From a virus (taxonomy: Duplodnaviria > Heunggongvirae > Uroviricota > Caudoviricetes), in IMG/VR virus record IMGVR_UViG_3300038393_000804, positions 83,598 through 147,597 of that record: a DNA stretch of 64,000 nt. One strand, 5' to 3'. Position 1 is the stretch's first letter; every line of letters starts with the position of its first letter. Shown piece after piece: positions 2,686 through 54,704 of the stretch. The notes under the pieces are model-generated. The model was not told where the DNA came from and searched no databases. It was given only the letters and a program-made list of their open reading frames with translations. The position numbers and the translations under genes were made by a program.

Positions 2686-5670
2686 TTACCAGCGACTTCT
2701 TGACGGCATTCCGCTTCTTCCGCCGCCCGAACCTCTAGCACCCCAGCCCAATGAAGTTCCGCGCTTTCCTACGCTTGTTTTGCGTGGTGGCGGAGGAGTA
2801 GGTTCATCCCATTTCTGGATGTACTCTTGTTTCTCCTGTTGGGTTCTGTCAGTACCTCTATAGATTCGTCCAAGCGGGTCAACGAACTTAACGTCCGCAA
2901 CCGCTACGGTTCTAGCTGGCTGTGAATCCTCAATGGTCTTAGCAATGTCAGGCATTTGGTCAATGAATGCAAAGATACCCAACATCATCGCATCGAGTGC
3001 GTGCTCATCAACATTGGTGTAAGTCGGTTCGCCAGTCTTCGGAGAAATACGTTCTACTGTGTAGTTCGTCATCTGTCTGAAGATAACTTCGTCAACATCC
3101 TTGTTAGGAATCATCAACTGACCACGTTCCAATATGAGTGTCGTTTGGTTAACCATGAACGGCTTTAACGGCTTGTTATCAAACTCACGACTATATGGGT
3201 CACGTACTAGATAAGAGCTGCCAAGTGCAATACCCTTAACGACATCGCCCAATGTCTTACGCAACATTTCGACCTGATATTCACCTGAGCCTCTGTCGGC
3301 ATAAATGGCGAATGGTCTGTAAATGTTATTGAGTTCAATAATCTTCCGAACCGCGTTATCATAGGTAAATTCGCCCTTTGGTATTTCTACACGATTGATG
3401 ACTTGGAATCGTCCATATTTGACTACTCCTGGCCCATCAACCTCTGGGCGTGGTCGCCTTTCTAAGAATGGATTCCATTGAGTAACAACGATTTGAGTCG
3501 CTGCACCCATCTTATCCCAGTCAACGCCAATGGCGATTGGGCTGTCCATCCTAGGCTGGCTGAGTAAAGCGTAACCATTAGACGCTGCCTCGTCAATATA
3601 ATCTTTGTTAAATACCCCCACTAATTCTGTACCGAAGTTCGCCATAACCTCATGGTCGTAAGCCACGTCACTGTAAAGGTTGCGTAATTCCCTTTCCATC
3701 TTCGGTGACCAGCCTGGGTTAACCATCGTTGGGAAGTAGAACTCCGCCCATCCTTCAGCTAGTTTTCGGTCATAAGTGCGGATATCAAATTGATTTGCCA
3801 GCTTACCTTCTACATCAGGGCCACCTTTAAATAGTCTTACATCTTGATTTAGCTTTTCCTGAGTACAGATTTGCCAGAATTTGCCCCGTCGTCCAGTCGG
3901 TGTAGATGCAACCATTACGCCGATTTCATCTGGTCTTTCAAGGGTAATCGCGAAGATAGCTTCAAAGTCTTTGTCGCCAAGGTAGTCAACCTCATCCATG
4001 TATAGCCAAGATGCTTTCTGACCACGGAGAGAACCACCCTCTGTACCACTACGAGTACCAGCTGTGTACAGCTTAATACGAGATTTATTCTTGAAGACAA
4101 TCTCATATGGAGAACGACGGATACTAGCAACCGCTGCTTGAAGCACTGGATTATTGTTAATGAAGTTGTTTAACTGGTCAAATATCTCACGGGCCTGTGT
4201 ATCGTATGGTGTTGCAACCAGACATGTAGCACCTTTCTTCAGCTCTGTACCACCATTACATGTAAAGGCAACCCAAAGCATATGCGCTGTCATTGTCCAT
4301 GTGTTATGCACCAATACATCTTCTACTACTAGGTTGTGAGTCTCTGGAACGAATACGTCATAAGTCTGACGCTTACCCAGTGGCTCAATCGCCGTCACTT
4401 CTTCCCAGATAACATCAGCACGAGCCAAGTCATAAAGGAATGCGGACTCAAGATTGTCAGCATACTTACGAATCTTAGAAATAGTCGGAGCTACGCCAGG
4501 ACGAAGACGTTCGTCTTTGCCGCCAGCTACCTGAGCTTTCGACATTTTCTTCTCTTTACGCTCTTGGTCAATATGCTTCCACACTTCAATAGGAACAGTG
4601 TGTTCTACTACTTCTGTCTTCTCTGCTTGCTCCACAATACCTTTCATTGTGTATTCAGAGCCAAGAATATTAATGTCCATGCCGAAAAGCATTAAGCTTT
4701 CGCGTCTATGAATCATCAATTGATAGATAAAGCTGACGTTGTCCTTGTACTTCTGCCTCTTTGTTTGGAGATTTGTCTGGATACCGAAGCGAAGCAATAG
4801 GTGCTTAACATCCTGTGCAAGCTTCTTAGATACTGTTGCAAATCCAATCTCTGGACGTGTGCCATTATAAACCCATCCACTTACTGCATATAAGCAATTT
4901 AGGAAGATAGATATTTGCTCTTTCTTCAATCCATAAATGAAACTAGGAATCTTTCTTTCTATTACTGCCATAAGGATGTCTTCATCAATAGAAGAAGCAA
5001 TGACACATGTATTCTCCTTATGAGCTTGGCGAATAACCTTTAGTCCATACTTCTCTGCATTATAGATGAAATCTTTCATAACAGTCTGAGACTTAGTACT
5101 GAATGTTAATTGGCTTCCGTTGTAATGTCCGCCTGCAATCAAATAAGCAATAAGCTTTACCTTTTCATAGAGCGTTAATCCGTTCCCGAAATAAGGCATA
5201 GCTGATGGTGTTGCAATGCGCATTCCCTTTTGAAGAGCATCCACTTCCACCCAACCATCTAATGTTAATACAGGATGATTGCCAGTCAGGATAACTTCTG
5301 CCCCGTATTTAGTGCGCACAAGAAATGTTTCCTTTACCCCATTGTCCTCTACAAAGAAAGCTTCACTTGGTTCTAAGTGATACTTCTCGTTTAATGTGAT
5401 GAGTGACGGTTTGCCGCCATCTTTCTGCATTTGGAATAGCTCTTCTACTGACCAGTACTCTCCTGTTACTGGGTCTAATACACGTTGGGTTTCCTCAATA
5501 CATTTTCCGATACGTCGTCCGCATCGAAGAACTTTACGGTGGTGAGGATGTCTTAAGATTTGCTCTTGATACCAACGAGGGGCCTCACCTAAATGGTGAG
5601 CTGCCCACTTCGCTGGGTCACGCATAATCTCAATCATTTCCCTATCGTGATTAGTAAATTGTTTTGCCAT
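2686..5670 (-). CDS. terL: terminase large subunit, interrupted in-frame by an intein
   Basis: Exteins join as CGRRIGK|TWT, giving a Walker A GxxxxGKT. Walker B LYMDEVD follows. A C-terminal nuclease-like region is present. Intein blocks: CIEET (A), GNHPVLT (B), LIAYLIAGGHY and FLNCLYAVSGWV (LAGLIDADG), VLVHN|T (G). Confidence 0.85.
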   Translation of the reverse strand: MAKQFTNHDREMIEIMRDPAKWAAHHLGEAPRWYQEQILRHPHHRKVLRCGRRIGKCIEETQRVLDPVTGEYWSVEELFQMQKDGGKPSLITLNEKYHLEPSEAFFVEDNGVKETFLVRTKYGAEVILTGNHPVLTLDGWVEVDALQKGMRIATPSAMPYFGNGLTLYEKVKLIAYLIAGGHYNGSQLTFSTKSQTVMKDFIYNAEKYGLKVIRQAHKENTCVIASSIDEDILMAVIERKIPSFIYGLKKEQISIFLNCLYAVSGWVYNGTRPEIGFATVSKKLAQDVKHLLLRFGIQTNLQTKRQKYKDNVSFIYQLMIHRRESLMLFGMDINILGSEYTMKGIVEQAEKTEVVEHTVPIEVWKHIDQERKEKKMSKAQVAGGKDERLRPGVAPTISKIRKYADNLESAFLYDLARADVIWEEVTAIEPLGKRQTYDVFVPETHNLVVEDVLVHNTWTMTAHMLWVAFTCNGGTELKKGATCLVATPYDTQAREIFDQLNNFINNNPVLQAAVASIRRSPYEIVFKNKSRIKLYTAGTRSGTEGGSLRGQKASWLYMDEVDYLGDKDFEAIFAITLERPDEIGVMVASTPTGRRGKFWQICTQEKLNQDVRLFKGGPDVEGKLANQFDIRTYDRKLAEGWAEFYFPTMVNPGWSPKMERELRNLYSDVAYDHEVMANFGTELVGVFNKDYIDEAASNGYALLSQPRMDSPIAIGVDWDKMGAATQIVVTQWNPFLERRPRPEVDGPGVVKYGRFQVINRVEIPKGEFTYDNAVRKIIELNNIYRPFAIYADRGSGEYQVEMLRKTLGDVVKGIALGSSYLVRDPYSREFDNKPLKPFMVNQTTLILERGQLMIPNKDVDEVIFRQMTNYTVERISPKTGEPTYTNVDEHALDAMMLGIFAFIDQMPDIAKTIEDSQPARTVAVADVKFVDPLGRIYRGTDRTQQEKQEYIQKWDEPTPPPPRKTSVGKRGTSLGWGARGSGGGRSGMPSRSRW
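4303..5502 (-). mobile_element. Intein of about 400 aa (TerL residues about 57-456) with a LAGLIDADG homing endonuclease domain, inserted in the TerL P-loop
   Basis: Starts with Cys right after GRRIGK and ends in HN followed by Thr. Two LAGLIDADG-like motifs lie between the splicing blocks. Confidence 0.7.
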
Positions 5671-33943: not shown

Positions 33944-35197
33944 ATGAACGAAATGGAATTTGCTAATGCAGTGCATGAAGCTGGGGGTATTGCTTACCGT
34001 GTGGGTGGCAGCATCCGTAATAAAATCTTGGGCATTCCCGTTCATGATAATGATTATTGTGTTACTGGTTTAACAGGAGAACAATTTGAAAGATTATTTC
34101 CTCGTGCTTATTCTGTTGGGCTTAGCTTTCATGTATATCTTCTAGAAATCGGAGAAGAAATATGTGAGGTAGCTTTTGCTAGGAGAGAAAAGAAAGTGGG
34201 CGAAGGACACAGAGGATTTGAAATAGATTCTAGTCCCGACATTACGATTGAAGAAGACTTATCTCGTCGTGATTTTACAATGAATGCGATTGCTTATAAC
34301 ATTCTTCGAGATGAGCTTTATGACCCATTTAGCGGTCAGAGAGACATTAAGAATAAAATAATCAATGCAACAACAGAAGCGTTTAAAGAAGACCCATTAA
34401 GGGTTTATCGGGCCGCACGATTTGCTGCTCAATTAGGATTTGATGTACATCCGAATACATTAGAAATGATGAAGGATGAAACTCTACAAGAGGAGATGAA
34501 GTCATTATCGGTTGAACGTGTTTATCTTGAACTAGAAAAAGCTTTAGAGTCTGACCACCCAGAAAAGTTTTTTGAAGTACTGAAAAATGGGCAGTGCCTA
34601 CAGGTTCACTTCAAAGAAGTTTATGACTTAATTGGTGTGGAGCAACATCCTGAACATCATCCAGAGGGTGATGCGTATAATCATACGATGCAGGTTTTGT
34701 CTGAGATGTGCAAGCTAACAGACCAAGTTGAAAGGAGATTTACTGCTCTTTGTCATGACTTTGGTAAGGCTCGTACTCCTAAAGAGTTGTGGCCTAAGCA
34801 TCATGGTCATGAAGAAGCTGGTGTAGCACCGCTAGAAGAAATATGTATTCGTTTGAAGCTTCCGAAAAAATGGTTTAATGCCGCTCATTTTGGCGTTCTT
34901 AATCATATGAGATTTCATCGTGTTCATGAAATGAGGGACGTGAAGAAAGTCGATATGATTGAAGGAGCTAGAAAAAGTGCATTGGGTGTTGAAGGTCTTG
35001 CTCAATTAGGATTAGCAGATGCTCGTGGTCGGAATGGATTACATGAAGGACATTCTAATTACGGGCCATTTCTATTCTGGGCTAATGAGATTTCTAAAGT
35101 TAAAGGTAATAAGGAACTTGAAGGCATGAAAGCGTGGGATGACAAAAGAAAGAGACAGGCTGCTCTTATAAAACAAATCAAAGGAGAGAGCAAATGA
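33944..35197 (+). CDS. cca: CCA-adding tRNA nucleotidyltransferase / poly(A) polymerase family enzyme with a C-terminal HD domain
   Basis: Head domain GGSIRN...HDNDY (GGxxR[DN]...DxD), RRDFTMNAIAY, and an HD domain (HDFGK, HGHEEAG). Confidence 0.8.
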   Translation: MNEMEFANAVHEAGGIAYRVGGSIRNKILGIPVHDNDYCVTGLTGEQFERLFPRAYSVGLSFHVYLLEIGEEICEVAFARREKKVGEGHRGFEIDSSPDITIEEDLSRRDFTMNAIAYNILRDELYDPFSGQRDIKNKIINATTEAFKEDPLRVYRAARFAAQLGFDVHPNTLEMMKDETLQEEMKSLSVERVYLELEKALESDHPEKFFEVLKNGQCLQVHFKEVYDLIGVEQHPEHHPEGDAYNHTMQVLSEMCKLTDQVERRFTALCHDFGKARTPKELWPKHHGHEEAGVAPLEEICIRLKLPKKWFNAAHFGVLNHMRFHRVHEMRDVKKVDMIEGARKSALGVEGLAQLGLADARGRNGLHEGHSNYGPFLFWANEISKVKGNKELEGMKAWDDKRKRQAALIKQIKGESK

Positions 35198-47191: not shown

Positions 47192-47488
47192 ATGCTAGAA
47201 AAAATTAAGCAAATCAAAGATGCACTACCATTGCAATTTAAAGATACACCGCACTTCGCTCATCATGTTATTACAAAGATTGATGAATTTGAAGAGCAGG
47301 AGCGCAGGCTATCGGCATCCAATGCATTAGCTGGCATCAAACAAAACCCTGTTGAAGAATCAGTAAGAAGGGAAACACTAAGAGTTGTGAGAGCTATCAT
47401 CATGAAGGAACTTGCGGACACTGTCGAAGATATGCTTCATTTAGGTGATAAGTATCATGAGGTCAAACATAAGGATGGGATTCGATGA
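47192..47488 (+). CDS. hypothetical protein, 98 aa
   Basis: TTAGGAGGATGATTGG RBS. Confidence 0.5.
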   Translation: MLEKIKQIKDALPLQFKDTPHFAHHVITKIDEFEEQERRLSASNALAGIKQNPVEESVRRETLRVVRAIIMKELADTVEDMLHLGDKYHEVKHKDGIR

Positions 47489-48225
47489 AGAAGCATGACA
47501 GACATGTTGTTGCTATGATAAATGGCGGCAGTCATATGCGTAATTTAAATGATGAACAATCAGATGTGGATTTGAAATACTTTGTTCTTCCAACCTTTGA
47601 TGATTTATATGAAGGCAAGAAGCATGCAAAGCAAACAACTTCGGATGAAGTGGATGAAGATGTTCAGGATGTAAGACGGCTTGAGACTTTATTGTTCAAA
47701 GCGAATCCTGCTTATCTTGATTTATTATTTAGCCCAGGCATTGAAACATTCGGATGCCAGAAGATGGATGAAATCATTGCGATGAGAGATGACATAGCCA
47801 ATATGAATCTCTCCAATCTTTACAGTGCTACGATGGGTACGGTTCAGCGGAACATCAATGACCTTCAGAATCCAACTTCGGAGAAGACACGGGCACTGAT
47901 TGAACGACATGCTTACAATCCAAAGAAAGCAATGTTGGCTGTTCATCTTTGCAAAGTACTGGTTAAGTTTCATGCAAATGGCTTTACGGACTACAAGAAA
48001 GCTATCTGGTATGAAGGTGAAGAACGCCAGTTCATGATAGATATCAAACGTGGTAAGTTTACATTTGATGAAATCAGAATGCTGATTAAGGATTGGGAAA
48101 CAGCAGCACAAGAATTAAAAGATGTTTACAAATCAAAAGAAATTCGTGTCGAAGTAAACAATCAGCTTCAGGAGAAGCTAAGAGATTTAATCTTTGATGC
48201 GACTTTAGATGGGTGGATAATATGA
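47485..48225 (+). CDS. Pol-beta-superfamily nucleotidyltransferase-like protein, 246 aa
   Basis: GGSHMRNLNDEQSDVDL fits GS-x9-11-DxD. Confidence 0.5.
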   Translation: MKKHDRHVVAMINGGSHMRNLNDEQSDVDLKYFVLPTFDDLYEGKKHAKQTTSDEVDEDVQDVRRLETLLFKANPAYLDLLFSPGIETFGCQKMDEIIAMRDDIANMNLSNLYSATMGTVQRNINDLQNPTSEKTRALIERHAYNPKKAMLAVHLCKVLVKFHANGFTDYKKAIWYEGEERQFMIDIKRGKFTFDEIRMLIKDWETAAQELKDVYKSKEIRVEVNNQLQEKLRDLIFDATLDGWII

Positions 48226-48452
48226 TATTTTACAATGATACAAACAAGGAGTATGTGATTCATCCAGCAACAGCGATTCATGGGATTGAATGCGATATGA
48301 GTCCCATCCCGCCACGCACAACACGTAAGTTTAAGGCTCCAAAAGGCATTGACCCATTCGTGAAAGTTTGGGAGTACGACAACAGCAATACGATTCTTGT
48401 ATCGGCAGCATTCGGTGAACCATTAGAAGAAGAAGTGGAGGAGTCAAAATGA
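48222..48452 (+). CDS. hypothetical small protein, 76 aa
   Basis: GGGTGG RBS before the ATG at 48222. Confidence 0.45.
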   Translation: MIFYNDTNKEYVIHPATAIHGIECDMSPIPPRTTRKFKAPKGIDPFVKVWEYDNSNTILVSAAFGEPLEEEVEESK

Positions 48453-49327
48453 TTTTATTAAATGGCAAAGAAGTTCCGTTCGGTAGATTTCCTAATGGCG
48501 AAACACATGTGATTACAACAATTGAAGCAACGGAGGAGCATCCAGCGCTCAATTTCTTCAAACAAAATATGGAGCAGGTAAATATCCTATCATTTAAGTA
48601 CGAAGATGATGCGGATTTAATCAAGCTGATGTTTGTTAAGAATCACATGGACTTGATTGCAACAGTTCCTTGTTATCTGCTTGTTTATTACATGCCTTAT
48701 TCACGCATGGACAGAAGCGAAGGCGGCAGCGTATTTACTTTAAAATATGTTTCTGCTTTTATTAACAGCCTTTATTTCGATAAAGTGTTTGTGATTGAAC
48801 CACATTCAGATGTAACATGTGCATTGCTTGACCGTTCAAAACCATTAATGGTAAATCAATTCTTAGTGAACTATGTTATGAATGAAATTGATTTTGATTT
48901 CGACAATGATTTCCTTGTTTATCCTGATGCTGGTGCGGAGAAACGTTACGAGAAAATGTTTGACCTTCAAGCAATCGTTGGTTTGAAACATCGTGATTTC
49001 CAAACAGGTTACATAACGAAACTTGATTTGGTTACACCAGGCATTGGTAAGAAAGCGATTATCGTTGATGACTTATCCAGTAAGGGTGGTACGTTTATCA
49101 TGGCTGCTGATGAGTTGAAGAAGCGTGGCTTTGAAGAAATCTATCTTTGTGTGGCTCACGCAGAAGACACTATCTTCAAGGGTAAAATATTTACGGAAAG
49201 TCCAATCAACAAAGTGTTTACAACCAACTCTATCTTATCTGACCAAGCTCAACATGATTGGGCAAATCAGCTATATAAAGATAAGATTGATGTGACGGAT
49301 GTCGAGGAGCTGATTGTTCTTGACTGA
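48449..49327 (+). CDS. ribose-phosphate pyrophosphokinase (PRPP synthetase, Prs) homolog; a candidate ADPR-PP synthetase (Adps) of a NARP1-type pathway
   Basis: Prs signatures RFPNGE, MPYSRMDR, IEPHSD and the PRPP-binding loop IIVDDLSSKGGT. Confidence 0.75.
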   Translation: MILLNGKEVPFGRFPNGETHVITTIEATEEHPALNFFKQNMEQVNILSFKYEDDADLIKLMFVKNHMDLIATVPCYLLVYYMPYSRMDRSEGGSVFTLKYVSAFINSLYFDKVFVIEPHSDVTCALLDRSKPLMVNQFLVNYVMNEIDFDFDNDFLVYPDAGAEKRYEKMFDLQAIVGLKHRDFQTGYITKLDLVTPGIGKKAIIVDDLSSKGGTFIMAADELKKRGFEEIYLCVAHAEDTIFKGKIFTESPINKVFTTNSILSDQAQHDWANQLYKDKIDVTDVEELIVLD

Positions 49328-49742
49328 CCCGTACCTATTGCCAGGTGCTGCAACCCTTCGTTTAATTAAGGAGTGGGAGCAGCACGGGAAGTTAATCGTT
49401 GCTTATGACTTTGATGGAACGGTTCATGACTACCACAAGGAAGGCAACAAGTACGACCAAGTCATTGAACTTCTTCGGGAGTGCAAGAAGCTTGGCTGTT
49501 ACTTGATTGTCTTTAGTACAAGTGAACCAGAACGACATGATTTCATTAAGAATTATCTTGATAGATGGGATATTCCTTATGACGCAGTCAATGAAAACAT
49601 GCCAGGTCTTCCGTTTAAAGGCGGCAAGATTTATTACAACATCCTGCTGGACGACAGAGCAGGATTAGAGTCAGCTTATTATTCATTAAAGCAAGCTAGC
49701 AGTTATATTAAATTGAAACGGGAGGAAACAAATAATGACTAA
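49314..49742 (+). CDS. HAD-superfamily phosphatase-like protein
   Basis: DxDGT motif (YDFDGTV) near the N-terminus; TTG start with GAGGAG. Confidence 0.55.
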   Translation: MFLTDPYLLPGAATLRLIKEWEQHGKLIVAYDFDGTVHDYHKEGNKYDQVIELLRECKKLGCYLIVFSTSEPERHDFIKNYLDRWDIPYDAVNENMPGLPFKGGKIYYNILLDDRAGLESAYYSLKQASSYIKLKREETNND

Positions 49743-51264
49743 AACTATTTTTCCAGCTACATTGTTGTGTGATTTTTACAAGGTGTCTCACCGTGAGCAG
49801 TATCCAAAGAAAACAAATAAGGTTTTCAGCACATGGATTGCACGAGGCAACAAGTACTTCCCGAAAGCAAAGAAAGTTGTAGCGTTTAACTTCCAAGGAT
49901 TAACCAAGAAATACTTTGTTGATTACTTCAATGAGCATTTCTTTAGCCGTCCAAAGGATGAAGTGGTATTTGAATACCAACGTGTTATCTACTTTACATT
50001 AATCAATCCTGGCAATGTTCAGGGTGTTGCAGACCCATTAATGGAAGCATCAAAGGTCGATGCGGAGCACATTGCAGCTCTTCATGATTTAGGTTATCTT
50101 CCAGTTCGTGTAAGAGCTGTGAAAGAAGGTACGTTGGTTCCAATGCGTGTTCCAATGTTGGTCATCGAAAATACAGTGGATGAATTCTACTGGGTAACAA
50201 ATTATCTTGAAACCATTATGTCAGCTGAGCTTTGGCAGCCAACAACATCTGCAACGATTGCTTACACGTACCGTCAGATTCTTGATGCGTATGCGATGGA
50301 AACAACAGGTTCTACAGCAGGTGTTGAATTCCAGGGTCATGATTTCTCTATGCGCGGTATGGCTGGCAAGGATGCGGCGGCAGCAAGTGGTGCTGGTCAC
50401 TTACTAAGTTTTGTTGGTACAGATACAATCCCAGCTATCAATTATCTTGAAGCTTATTACAATGCAAACATCGAGAAAGAATTGGTGGCAACTTCAATAC
50501 CTGCGACTGAACATTCAGTGATGTGCGCATACGGTCAAACAGATGAGTATGAATTATTCAAATCACTGATGACTGAAAAGTATCCAACAGGTTTCTTCAG
50601 CGTAGTATCTGATACTTGGGACTTCTGGAAAGTGGTTGGTGAATACTTACCGAAGCTGAAAGAAGAAATCCTTGGTCGTGATGGTCGCGTGGTTATTCGT
50701 CCTGACAGTGGTGACCCAGTTAAGATTCTTTGTGGTGACCCGAATGCAGAAGAAGAATTGGTGCGTAAAGGTTTAATTGAGAGCCTCTACGACATCATTG
50801 GCGGCACAGTAAATGATTTAGGGTACAAAGTATTAGACCCTCACATCGGAGCTATCTACGGCGATTCTATTACGCTAGAGAGAGCTGATTTGATTTGTGC
50901 TTTGTTAAAAGAAAAAGGCTTTGCTTCAACAAACGTGGTATTTGGTATCGGAAGCTTTACCTATCAGTATACAACGCGTGATACATTTGCACATGCGATG
51001 AAAGCAACCTTTGCTGAAGTGGATGGAGAAGAGCGCTTCTTATTGAAAGACCCTAAGACAGATGATGGTACAAAGAAATCATTAACTGGATTAGTGGCAG
51101 TTGTAAAAGTCGGTGGTGAATTAGTAGCCACTGATAATCTGGATACGAAAACTTATGAAGCAAACTTTGCAAACATTGACCTTCTTGAAGTTATCTTTGA
51201 GAACGGTGAAATCAAACGTGAAGAAAGCTTATCTGAAATTCGTGAAAGATTGGCGGCCCAATAA
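49735..51264 (+). CDS. nadV: nicotinamide phosphoribosyltransferase (NAMPT/NadV) family enzyme; alternatively a Namat-type nicotinamide ADPR transferase
   Basis: N-terminal DFYKVSHREQYP matches the NadV D.YK.SH..QYP signature; GGGAGGAAAC RBS. Confidence 0.8.
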   Translation: MTKTIFPATLLCDFYKVSHREQYPKKTNKVFSTWIARGNKYFPKAKKVVAFNFQGLTKKYFVDYFNEHFFSRPKDEVVFEYQRVIYFTLINPGNVQGVADPLMEASKVDAEHIAALHDLGYLPVRVRAVKEGTLVPMRVPMLVIENTVDEFYWVTNYLETIMSAELWQPTTSATIAYTYRQILDAYAMETTGSTAGVEFQGHDFSMRGMAGKDAAAASGAGHLLSFVGTDTIPAINYLEAYYNANIEKELVATSIPATEHSVMCAYGQTDEYELFKSLMTEKYPTGFFSVVSDTWDFWKVVGEYLPKLKEEILGRDGRVVIRPDSGDPVKILCGDPNAEEELVRKGLIESLYDIIGGTVNDLGYKVLDPHIGAIYGDSITLERADLICALLKEKGFASTNVVFGIGSFTYQYTTRDTFAHAMKATFAEVDGEERFLLKDPKTDDGTKKSLTGLVAVVKVGGELVATDNLDTKTYEANFANIDLLEVIFENGEIKREESLSEIRERLAAQ

Positions 51265-51537
51265 GATGGGTTGGTTTGATATTGAAGGCTCTGTCGGTGT
51301 CACGGTTGATGAAGAAACATTCACGAACGAATTCTTAGCATGGATGCAATCAAATGGCTGGACATTCTTAGGAGTGATTCAGCCAGCCAAACATACAAAG
51401 TAGGTGACGCTAGTGATTCGAATGAGAGAAATCGAATGTGGCAACTGCGGCTTTGATTATGATGATTGTGAAATCATTACAAACAAATGTCCAATGTGTC
51501 GTAGTGGTAAGAATCAAATTCCCAAGTAGGTGATAAA

Positions 51538-51930
51538 GTGGACGGTATTTCATTATTAAGAGAGTTTGCAAAGAAGGAAGGCATTGACTTAAAACGAGTC
51601 GATGCTTTCTTAAGGAAGTTTAACAATCCGCAAACATTGGAAGAACTAATGGAACTTCCAGATGCGATGTTGAAACACTTTGATTATATCGGTGATGTGA
51701 AAGACCCATTGTATTCTTTTATCAAAGAAGAATTTGAATTGAATCGACGCGAGGTTCTTGACCTTGAAAGAATTGCCGACAGCATACTGGATAATAAATA
51801 TTATTATGAAAGTAAGTTGGAGGAAGGCAAGATGACAGAGAATCAAGTGAGATTAAAACTTGATAAGTATGATGCGGTCATCAAGCAATTGATTGAAATC
51901 AAGTTTGGTAGTATTGAATACGACTGGTAG
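51538..51930 (+). CDS. hypothetical protein, 130 aa (GTG start)
   Basis: AGGTGATAAA RBS. Confidence 0.5.
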   Translation: MDGISLLREFAKKEGIDLKRVDAFLRKFNNPQTLEELMELPDAMLKHFDYIGDVKDPLYSFIKEEFELNRREVLDLERIADSILDNKYYYESKLEEGKMTENQVRLKLDKYDAVIKQLIEIKFGSIEYDW

Positions 51931-51936
51931 GCTTCG

Positions 51937-51960
51937 GGCGAAAGATATTCTTTCGTCTTT
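51937..51960 (+). terminator. candidate terminator (CGAAAGA-TAT-TCTTTCG plus TCTTT)
   Basis: 7-bp stem; modest T tail. Confidence 0.35.
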
Positions 51961-52170
51961 GAGGGTACGAGGCAGGTTTCCTTTTCGGTTCCTTTCCCCT
52001 GCTTCGTATTTTCAAAGATGTAAGAATGCCAAGGTTAGGGTGGACAGCACTAGTGAGTGGAAACCAATTCCTGTTTGAAACCGAAGTTCTTGCGTTCCAC
52101 ATAGATATTAAGTTAGTGATGGGATGGAAACTCATAGCGAGCCAACAAACTCTTCACACCGCGACACTGA

Positions 52171-52251
52171 ACTCTATGTGGTTCTATTTATCCTAGAGGG
52201 TATAACGAGCTTGACCAGCTCACAACTTATGTGTTGTACCTTCTAAGATAA
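52171..52251 (+). repeat. hairpin unit A (about 20-bp imperfect stem, about 34-nt loop containing a GAGCT/AGCTC sub-hairpin)
   Basis: Left GGTTCTATTTATCCTAGAGGGTA is the complement of right TACCTTCTAAGATAAATAGAAATT. Confidence 0.5.
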
Positions 52252-52412
52252 ATAGAAATTAAGATGAGTGCCGCGGCCTTCTAAGCCGCCTTGCACATCT
52301 ATTGATTCTGAAATCTGTTTATTACCATGTGTATATTAAGCTAGGGTGATGGAGCTTTGACGAAGTTTAAATGTCACGCAGCGTGGCAGCCTGTTGACGT
52401 TGAATTACACAT

Positions 52413-52509
52413 GGTTCTATTTATCTTGGAGGATGCAATGATATGACCGCGGATTATGCCCGATTGTAGGCCCCGCCTTTGCATCTTCCCAGATGAATAG
52501 AAATTAAGG
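52413..52509 (+). repeat. hairpin unit B
   Basis: Left GGTTCTATTTATCTTGGAGGA pairs with right TCTTCCCAGATGAATAGAAATT. Confidence 0.45.
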
Positions 52510-52677
52510 ACACATGGACCCCGCTAATAGCGTAAGCGGTCTACTGAAATCTGTTTATCCCACATCAATGCCAAGGATTAAATATGGGCTGCGGACTTCC
52601 TACGCCTTCGTGATTGATTCAAGGAGTGGTCAACATCGAAGGAAGGGGGATTATGGTACACCGTCCGAAGTTGATGT

Positions 52678-52831
52678 GGTTCTATTTGTCTTAGACAGTA
52701 TGATGGTAGGTAGGTTTTTTAGGTTATCTCCAACCAGTATTTTTTACTACCTAAGTGAGTTGACTTCTTGGGAGCAGCTACACTTCAGTGACGATTGACA
52801 TCGTGCTGTCTAAGATGAATAGAAATTAAGG
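52678..52831 (+). repeat. hairpin unit C (longer loop, about 107 nt)
   Basis: Left GGTTCTATTTGTCTTAGACAG pairs with right CTGTCTAAGATGAATAGAA. The two mismatches are both G-U-compatible. Confidence 0.5.
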
Positions 52832-53056
52832 TTGCCTAAGAATAGGGTTACGGCGATGACAACGCTGGTAATTAATGTCCTCATAGCGAGTAAAAGCGAG
52901 ATTCCCGCCATACCGTTTTAGGTGAAGGTCTTAGGATTAATCTGAAATCTATATGTCACATCCAGTTATTAAGCTAGTGGCAGGCTACTGCGCGAGCACG
53001 GGGCCGTGAAACGATGATGCTGAACGCTGGATGTTTTGTTTAATGAAAGGAGGTAA

Positions 53057-53836
53057 ATGATGCACCCGACTGAAGTTGAATACGAAAGACGACCTTATGA
53101 AGGTCAGATTGATGCAGGCATGAAAACATTCATGGATATAATGGATTCAGTTGCAATGGAACATGGAACACAATGGTCATTTGCAGGTGGGTTTCCTAGG
53201 GATTTATACAAGGGAAAGCACTGGAATGATTATGATGTTTGTATTCGTGATGTTCCTTATGCAAGAGACATCTTAGAAAAGACAGGAGTGTTAGCACTTG
53301 GGCAGCAGGATGGAACAGAGATTCCTCATGACATCTATTGCGACCCCTACACATTCACGAAATCAGAAATACCTGTTCATTGGATTAATGCAGATGATGA
53401 GTGGGCATTCGCTCCCGTTCGTTTTGACTTTAGTATTAATCAGATATGTTTGAAGTCAGATGGTTTTTTCTATGCTCCGAAGTATGCATGGCGTGACCTT
53501 GATAGAGGAATCATTAGAAAAACAACGGACAGGATGACAACAAACTTAGCAACACGGGCGATTCGGTTCGCTGCCAAGTATGGATTCACCATTGATACTC
53601 CATTGAATGCTGAAATAAAAGAAGCAGTTAAGGAGCCAATGGGCACAGATATTCTTCTTCGTAATTGCTTAAAGATGGTTGAAGATGAAGTTGGTGATAC
53701 ATGCTTTAAGATAATGAAGAACCGTGGATTTCCTCACATGGAAGAATGCAAAACAATGGGTGATTATATTAGAAAGTTAAACAACATGATTGTCAGTGGG
53801 CAAGGACACCGCGAAGAAAGTCCAGGCGGATATTAA
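53057..53836 (+). CDS. minimal nucleotidyltransferase resembling the head domain of CCA-adding/polyA-polymerase enzymes, 259 aa
   Basis: GGFPRDLYKGKHWNDYDVCIRD fits GGxxRD...DxD; AAAGGAGGTAA RBS. Confidence 0.55.
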   Translation: MMHPTEVEYERRPYEGQIDAGMKTFMDIMDSVAMEHGTQWSFAGGFPRDLYKGKHWNDYDVCIRDVPYARDILEKTGVLALGQQDGTEIPHDIYCDPYTFTKSEIPVHWINADDEWAFAPVRFDFSINQICLKSDGFFYAPKYAWRDLDRGIIRKTTDRMTTNLATRAIRFAAKYGFTIDTPLNAEIKEAVKEPMGTDILLRNCLKMVEDEVGDTCFKIMKNRGFPHMEECKTMGDYIRKLNNMIVSGQGHREESPGGY

Positions 53837-53849
53837 AGGAGATGATGAA

Positions 53850-54704
53850 ATGGGATTGAGTTTAACAAAAGGTTCAGAAGGAATGTTCGTTGAACTTGAG
53901 CAAGAAAATGTGGTGAAAAGATTTGTTATTCCAGCCATGGAGGAATTAGAAGGTAAGCTTCAATCATTCGTAAAGAAGCATCCAGGTCTTATCTTAGTTC
54001 GATTCGGCAAAGCCATCGTTGCATCTCAGGATGGAGCGGCAGGATTAAGAGATGGATTAGATAATGTTCCTTCGGCTGTTGTTAGTTCTTGTATGGTTGA
54101 TTTATGCGGCGGTCATCCAGTGTTAAACATTGGGCCTGCTCGGTATTCATTGGATTTGATTAAAGAAATTAATGAATGTGAAACAGAAACGGTTGCCCAG
54201 GAAGAAGTCGAGAAAGGTCAGTTAACTATTCACGATGTACCAGCTCCTGAACTTCCGAAACCTGATTTGGCTGCAAGCTTACGTGCTCAACTTCAACAGA
54301 AGAAGGAGGAGCCGAAGGTTGAAACATTGCAGGATAAGTTAAATGCAAAGCTGGCTGAACAGAAATCAAAACCAGTTGCTGAGAAGAGCGAGTTGATTCT
54401 TACTACCTCTGAAGATTTAAAACTTCTTAAACATGAAGAGCAGAAGGGGGAAACGCCAGCTCAGAAAGCAACACGCGAATACTTTGCGAATCATAAGAAC
54501 GCAGAGATAATCGTAAGAGAAGGACGTTCGCCTAGTAAGATTGATATGATTCTTATGAAACTGGACAACATTGAAGGTCTACTTGGAGGCGACCTTGAAA
54601 GTGAGATGACTGGTAAGGATTTAGCTGAATGGTTCTGGCAACACTTAGAAAACATTGGTGAAGAAAAAACATTTTCCATCTTGGCAAGTAGGCTAACTAA
54701 ATGA
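53850..54704 (+). CDS. hypothetical protein, about 284 aa
   Basis: AAAGGAGATGATGAA RBS before the ATG at 53850. Confidence 0.55.
   Translation: MGLSLTKGSEGMFVELEQENVVKRFVIPAMEELEGKLQSFVKKHPGLILVRFGKAIVASQDGAAGLRDGLDNVPSAVVSSCMVDLCGGHPVLNIGPARYSLDLIKEINECETETVAQEEVEKGQLTIHDVPAPELPKPDLAASLRAQLQQKKEEPKVETLQDKLNAKLAEQKSKPVAEKSELILTTSEDLKLLKHEEQKGETPAQKATREYFANHKNAEIIVREGRSPSKIDMILMKLDNIEGLLGGDLESEMTGKDLAEWFWQHLENIGEEKTFSILASRLTK

Follow-up and report, generated by a model that had tools for sequence, protein, structure and literature searches.

Which kind of element fills a gene-free island of about 1 kb in the genome of a large phage, and does it act as DNA or as RNA? The island in question (51937-53034, plus strand) lies in a stretch of 64,000 nucleotides from an uncultivated tailed phage (Caudoviricetes; IMG/VR record IMGVR_UViG_3300038393_000804, positions 83,598 to 147,597), and this whole stretch is called the window here. 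An initial annotation of the sequence had described three repeat units, each with a long hairpin, and had offered as roles an array of structured or processed RNAs, a replication origin or iteron region, a packaging site or a cruciform. We found that the island is built from two recurring types of RNA module, a long hairpin (H) and a stem-closed clamp domain (C), with no spacer between neighbouring helices. From 51937 to 53034 the modules follow the order P0-H0-C0-C1-H1-C2-C3-H2-C4-C5-H3-C6-C7, where P0 is a 5′ hairpin. It is well supported, and in our judgement very probable, that the island is a selected structure of plus-strand RNA. This is a new RNA family, so far found only in uncultivated large phages.

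Two RNA modules in a gene-free island

The H module is a long hairpin with a sequence-conserved stem of about 26 bp and a variable apex, and the arms of the four copies in the window (H0-H3, all on the plus strand) are 23-32 nt long. When G-U pairs were counted, the hairpin scan gave 23 pairs in 23-nt arms for H0 (51954-52020, with a 21-nt apex and without the UUCUAUUU base), 26 pairs in 28-nt arms for H1 (52182-52257; arms 52182-52209 and 52230-52257), 24 pairs in 26-nt arms for H2 (52415-52502; arms 52415-52440 and 52477-52502), and 30 pairs in 32-nt arms for H3 (52680-52824; arms 52680-52711 and 52793-52824). H1, H2 and H3 correspond to units A, B and C of the initial annotation. Its three repeat families, D1 (GTGGTTCTATTT...), D2 (...AAGATrAATAGAAATTAAG) and D3 (CTGAAATCTGTTTAT), are present where it placed them, in three copies each, and its remark that the arm mismatches of unit C are compatible with G-U pairing is correct. 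The arms are indeed inverted repeats, but the length of about 19-21 bp given for them was too short (28, 26 and 32 nt for H1, H2 and H3). Likewise, the three units exist, but a fourth hairpin of the same family, H0, and the 5′ hairpin P0 (51937-51957, plus strand; GGCGAAAGA/UCUUUCGUC) had been overlooked. P0 starts 7 nt past the stop codon of the upstream gene, and a hairpin of this type also opens the island in relatives. The arm motifs are concentrated in the island: all three occurrences of CTAAGATGAATAGAAATTAAG in the window (at most 3 mismatches; 0.01 expected) fall within it, as do five of the seven matches to the 5′ arm motif (0.99 expected).

To describe the helix, the arms of 36 hairpins from nine loci were aligned with the apex removed (alignment A2). 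In this alignment, 92.8% of the cells of the 26-bp helix are paired, compared with 41-50% after a shift of the partner strand by 1-3 columns; the percentage is inflated because the modules were chosen by their pairing. Compensatory cells number 172 versus 49.7 in shuffles, and none of 500 shuffles reaches 172, although these cells are not independent events because many copies are paralogs or close orthologs. Changes on both sides were found in 21 of the 26 pairs. A covariance model built from A2 (R1) recovers 45 plus-strand copies at 32-68 bits, nine of them outside the seed and all inside islands, and it detects none in the rest of the window or at two Bacillus phage loci. In the window, H0 scores 56.3 bits (E 1.7e-11), H1 63.8 bits, H2 60.4 bits and H3 64.1 bits. 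Furthermore, the H2 unit (hairpin plus clamp) has 37 pairs, 11 of them compensatory, among four orthologs. The apexes of single units can also be followed between phages: that of H2 is orthologous to the apex of a hairpin at 2215 in the related locus L065, and the branched 81-nt apex of H3 to that of a hairpin at 3949 in L059. The H stems are near-perfect duplexes of 24-30 bp with a geometry like that of RNase III substrates, and from this geometry processing by RNase III is plausible.

The stretches between the hairpins had been treated as spacers, but they are in fact eight stem-closed domains (C0-C7). Each clamp domain consists of a closing helix of 8-11 bp, a conserved asymmetric internal loop and a variable apex. 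On its 5′ side the loop has 2-3 nt followed by YAAG, and on its 3′ side YYGAA followed by 0-1 nt. In terms of the earlier repeats, ATTAAGCTAG is the 5′ half of the clamp loop, and CTGAAATCTGTTTAT is the 3′ half together with the 3′ strand of the closing helix. Because ATTAAGCTAG also recurs upstream of unit A, as ATTAAGTTAG (52107), our register of the repeats differs from the one first proposed. The sequence of the closing helix varies from copy to copy, as in C1, C3, C5 and C7.

All eight domains lie on the plus strand. C0 (52017-52096; CAAG...CCGAA type) is closed by GAUGUAAGAAU/GUUCUUGCGUU, its 5′ strand being the base of the H0 3′ arm, and its orthologs align and fold alike. C1 (52097-52181; UAAG...CUGAA type) is closed by CCACAUAGA/UCUAUGUGG. 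The helix of C2 (52247-52323) joins the base of the H1 3′ arm, GAUAAAUAGA, to a strand that we call L, the UCUGUUUAUU of the CTGAAATCTGTTTAT motif. C3 (52324-52415), which contains ATTAAGCTAG, is closed by ACCAUGUGUA/UACACAUGGU, and C4 (52492-52559), which overlaps the H2 base, by GAUGAAUAGA/UCUGUUUAUC. C5 (52560-52679; CAAG...CCGAA type; CCACAUCAAU/GUUGAUGUGG) is also found in L057, L059 and L065. C6 (52814-52957) overlaps the H3 base, and its helix GAUGAAUAGA/UCUAUAUGUC has 8 of 9 pairs; the strict clamp scan missed it because of the one mismatch. The terminal clamp, C7 (52958-53034; ACAUCCAGU/GCUGGAUGU), ends 10 nt 5′ of the Shine-Dalgarno sequence of the next gene, and in six orthologs 8 of its 13 predicted pairs are kept by double changes.

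The clamp scan found 43 domains in the 14.3 kb of islands at ten loci, versus 0.66 in shuffles, and none on the opposite strand of the islands. In 130 kb of flanking coding DNA there were only weak 8-bp look-alikes with irregular linkers. Since MAFFT gave the two clamp types different registers, the shuffle test and the fold of the orthologs were used in place of a pair count. The clamp loop is possibly UAA/GAN-like; assignment as a K-turn or loop E was rejected for its poor fit to the consensus of these motifs.

The plus strand is marked in several ways. In A2, G-U wobbles outnumber A-C mismatches 111 to 26, which points to RNA of this strand, and three columns of the helix are predominantly G-U. 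The region 52097-53034 folds at -312 kcal/mol on the plus strand (z = -7.15, 20 shuffles) and at -268 kcal/mol on the minus strand (z = -5.5), and the advantage of 44 kcal/mol is due to the conserved G-U wobbles. In addition, the same sites score about 20-25 bits lower with R1 on the minus strand in every copy. On the minus strand, the H base (52182-52263) reads AAUUUCUAU..., which resembles the Cas12a repeat handle, AAUUUCUAC. This was judged a coincidence, since the wobble pattern marks the plus strand.

The two modules compete for one strand. At the purine-rich base of the H 3′ arm (for example, GAUAAAUAGA), the sequence can pair with either of two strands, namely the base of the H 5′ arm and the L strand further downstream; in 12 units it makes 9-10 of 10 pairs with the former and 10 of 10 with the latter. 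These rival partners differ from each other in sequence. In L059 and L065, the purine strand has changed to AUGAGUGGA, and L has changed to match it (UUCACUUAU). In the window, the closing helix of C2 and the basal 10 bp of H1 are mutually exclusive, with 10 of 10 pairs available to either partner. The alternation between the H base and the clamp helix may be a switch, a folding pathway or a refolding after cleavage. A triple helix between L and the H base was also considered and rejected, because variants without mirror symmetry fit antiparallel Watson-Crick pairing only.

As to coding capacity, the initial statement that the island has no credible open reading frame (ORF) holds in substance, but an ORF of 94 aa that begins with ATG (52514-52798) is mechanically present. 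This ORF is not preserved in relatives. Its tblastn matches there are interrupted and in the wrong order, the longest stop-free stretch in L059 is 63 aa, and it was therefore rejected as coding. Gene callers left the equivalent stretches empty in all relatives. No plus-strand terminator-like site was found in 51500-53300. A promoter reading, with YTGAA as the -35 and TATTAAG as the -10 element, was rejected as well: the combination occurs only in the island, the spacing is off and it is missing from the CAAG-type clamps. The Rfam search proposed in the initial annotation gave no match for the island at E <= 10 beyond chance microRNA-shaped hits to H0, and the whole window has no Rfam match at gathering score. 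What the initial annotation had missed was the second type of module, the alternative pairing and the conserved link with the downstream nucleotidyltransferase gene, described below.

Relatives, embedded tRNAs and a Y RNA-like element

The gene directly downstream of the island encodes a nucleotidyltransferase with 18 homologs (48-100% identity), all from metagenome assemblies, and the exact homolog of the window protein is recorded on a contig of 526 kb. Every contig that was fetched has a gene-free gap of 0.9-2.1 kb directly upstream of the nucleotidyltransferase homolog. Ten related phage contigs carry the island at this position with both module types, and it is retained even where the flanking protein is only 48% identical. 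In most cases the genes upstream of the gap are those of NAD salvage (Prs, NAMPT) or encode Macro, YqeY or RlaP nucleotidyltransferase. Single units have orthologs in other phages (L065 has the apex of window H2 and L059 that of H3), and the number and order of units differ among phages, close relatives included.

Searches beyond these contigs, cultured phages included, added no further member of the family. Among 50,697 phage records there was no match to the island (blastn, distant mode) or to the nucleotidyltransferase (tblastn), and the nearest cultured phages by NAMPT (vB_BcoS-136 and FADO) lack an island of this kind. When viral contigs were scanned for the motifs, only chance hits appeared, lacking the hairpin energy or companion motifs. 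A strict degenerate hairpin pattern found nothing in viral, metagenome and genome collections, but this pattern also misses the copies of the window itself and was thus too strict. Protein-pattern scans derived from the nucleotidyltransferase alignment returned nothing usable; L067 was a chance match of 28 residues.

Some of the more distant relatives carry tRNAs within the island. ARAGORN and the Rfam model RF00005 found no tRNA in the window; ARAGORN in relaxed mode is unreliable here, as it calls hairpins tRNAs. In relatives, one or two tRNAs lie inside islands of 8-12 modules, on the same strand as the modules, and none of them has an encoded CCA end. L064 has a tRNA-Lys(UUU) of 55.7 bits at the apex of a clamp domain, and a second match at 3124-3207 (41 bits) with an insert of 18 nt in the anticodon loop; the tRNA of L062 scores 33.8 bits. 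The element at 3124-3207 in L064 and one at about 1417-1506 in L065 are both tRNA-like, with the anticodon loop expanded by 17-18 nt and UCAGCAU following, and each lies between a clamp domain and an H hairpin.

Another apex of L064 resembles a Y RNA. The segment 3793-3910 aligns over its full length with YrlA (RF02553; 33.2 bits, E 7.4e-5), lies exactly inside the clamp 3781-3911 and keeps the permuted order of YrlA: T-arm, capped acceptor, D-arm. Dimeric tRNAs are a known caveat for YrlA-like matches (PMC4201824); the L064 element is not such an artefact, because no matching tRNA halves flank it. T-arm-like pieces are found in L062, L063 and L065, and the latter two gave no YrlA match. The short motif GNCGAAN0-1G, which near the 5′ end of Y RNAs is the presumed contact of Rsr (Chen et al. 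2014, PMC4201824), occurs in P0 as GGCGAAAG at 51937 and in the same place in six of nine loci.

The likeness to YrlA extends to the general plan. Both are modular non-coding RNAs with a stem handle and a variable or tRNA-like module, and several YrlA-type RNAs can come from one precursor encoded beside genes of RNA-repair type. In Mycobacterium smegmatis, YrlA is cleaved by RNase P, gains CCA and shares one precursor with YrlB (PMC4201824). However, the 26-bp H stem, the YAAG/YYGAA clamp and the alternative pairing have no counterpart in YrlA, the island has 8-12 tandem modules rather than 1-4 RNAs, and its neighbour is a truncated CCA-type nucleotidyltransferase, not rsr. Y RNAs are further recognised by their closeness, about 4 kb at most, to a same-strand gene for Ro60/Rsr (TROVE), as set out by Chen et al. 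(2014, PMC4201824).

The adjacent nucleotidyltransferase and its gene context

The protein encoded at 53057-53836 (plus strand, 259 aa) is a truncated class-II nucleotidyltransferase of the CCA-adding or poly(A) polymerase type, as judged from its motifs, an AlphaFold2 model and Foldseek. It has the motifs GGFPRD...NDYD, RFDFSIN and RAIRF (GGxxRD...DxD, RxDFxxN and RAxRF), and residues G44, G45, R48, D49, D58 and D60 are invariant in 16 homologs. The model (pLDDT 90.9) has CCA-, A- and CC-adding enzymes and poly(A) polymerase as its best Foldseek matches (E 2.6e-10 to 1e-7, TMq 0.65), the top ones all being tRNA nucleotidyltransferases, and by this model the protein has the head and neck of the class-II tRNA nucleotidyltransferase fold. 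It shares the fold of these parts and the motifs with class-II CCA-adding enzymes and poly(A) polymerases. Unlike these enzymes, which are 370-460 aa long and have a tail domain, the 259-aa protein lacks the tail (target-normalised TM-score 0.3-0.45) and EDxxR; in the alignment, the position of this nucleotide-selection motif reads TTNLATR. There was no Pfam match at E <= 0.01, and the subfamily has no solved relative closer than about 18% identity.

A 284-aa protein (53850-54704, plus strand) follows the nucleotidyltransferase in every relative, with 12 homologs at 39-100% identity. Neither Pfam nor PHROG nor NCBIfam has a match to it, and its AlphaFold2 model is poor (pLDDT 64) and gave no fold match. 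Neighbours of 567 aa and 595 aa have no PDB relative by sequence.

Directly upstream of the island, genes for RlaP nucleotidyltransferase (47485-48225), Prs and NAMPT form an NAD-salvage and RNA-repair cluster (47485-51264, plus strand), which includes a 142-aa ORF matching a PHROG family annotated as phosphoheptose isomerase. The NAMPT proteins of the window and of Bacillus phage vB_BcoS-136 share 69% identity. In Tsamsa, Thrax4, Izhevsk and other Bacillus phages, several Tsamsa-like NAMPT matches by tblastn are split by about 220 extra nucleotides, which suggests that the NAMPT gene of several Tsamsa-like phages holds an intervening sequence. The window also encodes a canonical CCA-adding enzyme (33944-35197, plus strand; PolyA_pol head, RNA-binding and HD domains by Pfam), although it has no tRNA gene. 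Jumbo phages are reported to carry RNA-repair kits in which a tRNA-like partner joins RlaP, CCA enzymes and TROVE proteins (PMC7824862).

A few kilobases 3′ of the island lies a ubiquitin-like set on the plus strand: a 359-aa protein with three Prok_Ub repeats (57318-58397), a Prok-JAB protein (61532-62818) and a ThiF/E1-like protein (62889-63806). Faint Prok_Ub matches occur in the same position in L060, L061, L062 and L064. In addition, one of the 47 ORFs of at least 100 aa that were scanned in the window matches Intein_splicing and LAGLIDADG_3, so that an intein-bearing gene is present.

Possible roles of the modular RNA

The reading that we favour, at slightly less than even confidence, is that the island encodes a modular, highly structured non-coding RNA not described before, which works in a manner like Y RNAs. 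The conserved stems and loops would be handles for a common protein or for docking between RNAs, and the variable apexes would be cargo or effector modules, some of which in relatives are true tRNAs or a YrlA-like mimic. The chain would be transcribed as a single precursor with the flanking genes and cut by host RNases, with RNase III acting in the H duplexes and RNase P and RNase Z at the tRNA cargo. Once H has been cut, L would capture the base of the H 3′ arm and leave each released domain with paired ends, and the adjacent tail-less CCA-type nucleotidyltransferase would extend or repair the new 3′ ends. As worded here, this mechanism of scaffold, processing and tailing is drawn by analogy with Y RNAs and is more tentative than the reading as a whole. 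The neighbourhood of NAD salvage, RlaP and CCA enzyme suggests a role in RNA repair or counter-defence. A more specific proposal, which we consider rather doubtful, is a new class of phage RNA, a Ro60-independent, covalently linked chain of bistable stem modules. It would offer host tRNA-directed enzymes or defence nucleases a programmable scaffold or a decoy, a tail-less CCA-type enzyme dedicated to it would mature it, and its units would toggle between hairpin and clamp in the course of their working cycle.

Several points weigh against the favoured reading. The hairpins and clamps were picked by their own pairing, only ten loci are known, and the compensatory counts come largely from paralogs and close orthologs. 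The island of the window has no T-loop motif or tRNA-like piece, and its Rfam search at E <= 10 returned only the chance hits to H0. The YrlA match in L064 is far below the gathering score (33 versus 69 bits), and that in L062 (4230-4360; 20.1 bits, E 0.45) is at noise level. Pfam found no Ro60/TROVE family among 57 ORFs of the window or in the fetched flanks of the relatives, and the H and clamp modules are outside any definition of Y RNAs. In addition, the adjacency of the nucleotidyltransferase could mean cis-regulation rather than a relationship of enzyme and substrate, and transcription, cleavage, refolding, tailing and the biological role are steps that we infer.

The island could be one intact "ornate" RNA of about 1 kb that folds as a single particle, like GOLLD or ROOL. 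Its helices would lie in coaxial stacks, tertiary contacts would form through the YAAG/YYGAA loops, and the modules would form a covalently linked pseudo-oligomer that perhaps presents or encloses tRNA cargo. Junctions of zero nucleotides between helices throughout 52017-53034, the conserved internal loops and the island size of 0.9-2.1 kb agree with this, and the tRNAs inside the modules of relatives echo the linker tRNAs of GOLLD. The GOLLD linker holds tRNAs, and phage ROOL and GOLLD lie near tRNA islands (Kretsch et al. 2025, PMC12286853). The likeness is that of very large, heavily structured phage non-coding RNAs tied to tRNA islands. However, GOLLD and ROOL each adopt one complex fold and assemble into homo-oligomers, whereas our island is an internally repeated chain with a variable number of units, and because module number and order vary even among close relatives, independent units are favoured over one fixed fold. 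Neither GOLLD nor ROOL was matched in the window and eight relatives at gathering score, or in the island at E <= 10, and embedded tRNAs would normally be excised by RNase P and RNase Z; we consider the single particle unlikely. A long cis-regulatory leader of the nucleotidyltransferase operon is quite improbable. In such a leader, switches between the H 5′ arm and L would respond to a ligand, a tRNA or temperature and thereby control read-through or the stability of the mRNA, which would suit the mutually exclusive helices kept in every unit, the invariant position directly upstream of the same gene, and the end of the island 10 nt before the ribosome-binding site with no terminator between. 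Nevertheless, 1-2 kb with 3-6 repeated units that vary among relatives is unlike any known leader, and tRNA genes inside it would sever the leader from the mRNA. Moreover, the last domain is clear of the ribosome-binding site, no terminator/antiterminator pair is visible, and there is no match to a riboswitch or T-box.

It has also to be asked whether the island is selected as RNA at all. A decaying tRNA cluster colonised by a selfish palindrome like a miniature inverted-repeat transposable element (MITE), and kept by descent and gene conversion, could account for tRNAs or fragments in only some relatives, for units gained and lost, and for arms conserved like terminal inverted repeats. We consider it very improbable: the distal stems and all 43 clamp helices stay paired although their sequences differ, the wobble positions are fixed and strand-specific, and apex substructures covary between orthologs. 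No copy of the palindrome lies elsewhere in the window, and the island persists to 48% identity of the flanking protein. Least credible, and hardly tenable, is an element that acts as DNA, such as an iteron origin, a packaging site or cruciform sites for protein binding, which the initial annotation had also suggested. Tandem and long inverted repeats in a gene-free region are an architecture typical of origins, but the island has no AT-rich unwinding region and no GC-skew turn. DNA-level action is strongly disfavoured because the signals depend on the strand: the 111:26 ratio of G-U to A-C, the plus strand folding better by 44 kcal/mol, and the YAAG/YYGAA loops (43 domains versus none). Compensatory changes in helices of unconserved sequence are likewise unlike DNA-binding sites. 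The part of the initial interpretation that survives is the array of structured or processed RNAs, which fits the compensatory changes, the G-U conservation, the plus-strand covariance scores and the same-orientation tRNA genes in the islands of relatives.

Double-stranded processing stems are familiar from the precursors of polycistronic and stable RNAs, such as the stalks of rRNA operons and the early RNase III sites of phage T7. The island resembles them in its long perfect duplexes around cargo, repeated along the transcript, and in the embedded tRNAs. It differs in that the stem sequence is conserved from unit to unit and from phage to phage, most of its apexes are no recognisable RNA, and a third strand competes for the base of the stem.

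Taken as a class, the island does not belong to YrlA, GOLLD, ROOL or tRNA arrays, but like them it is a large or modular phage RNA with a link to tRNAs. Only a few such RNAs are known, among them GOLLD, ROOL and Y RNAs; they are poorly understood, and a connection with tRNAs recurs among them. To these the island adds a family that is unusually legible: two repeated modules, alternative helices in each unit, and a dedicated, truncated CCA-type enzyme that is always next door. Its cargo ranges from nothing recognisable, through a Y-RNA-like tRNA mimic, to real tRNAs. This combination makes the role of large phage RNAs near tRNA islands concretely testable.

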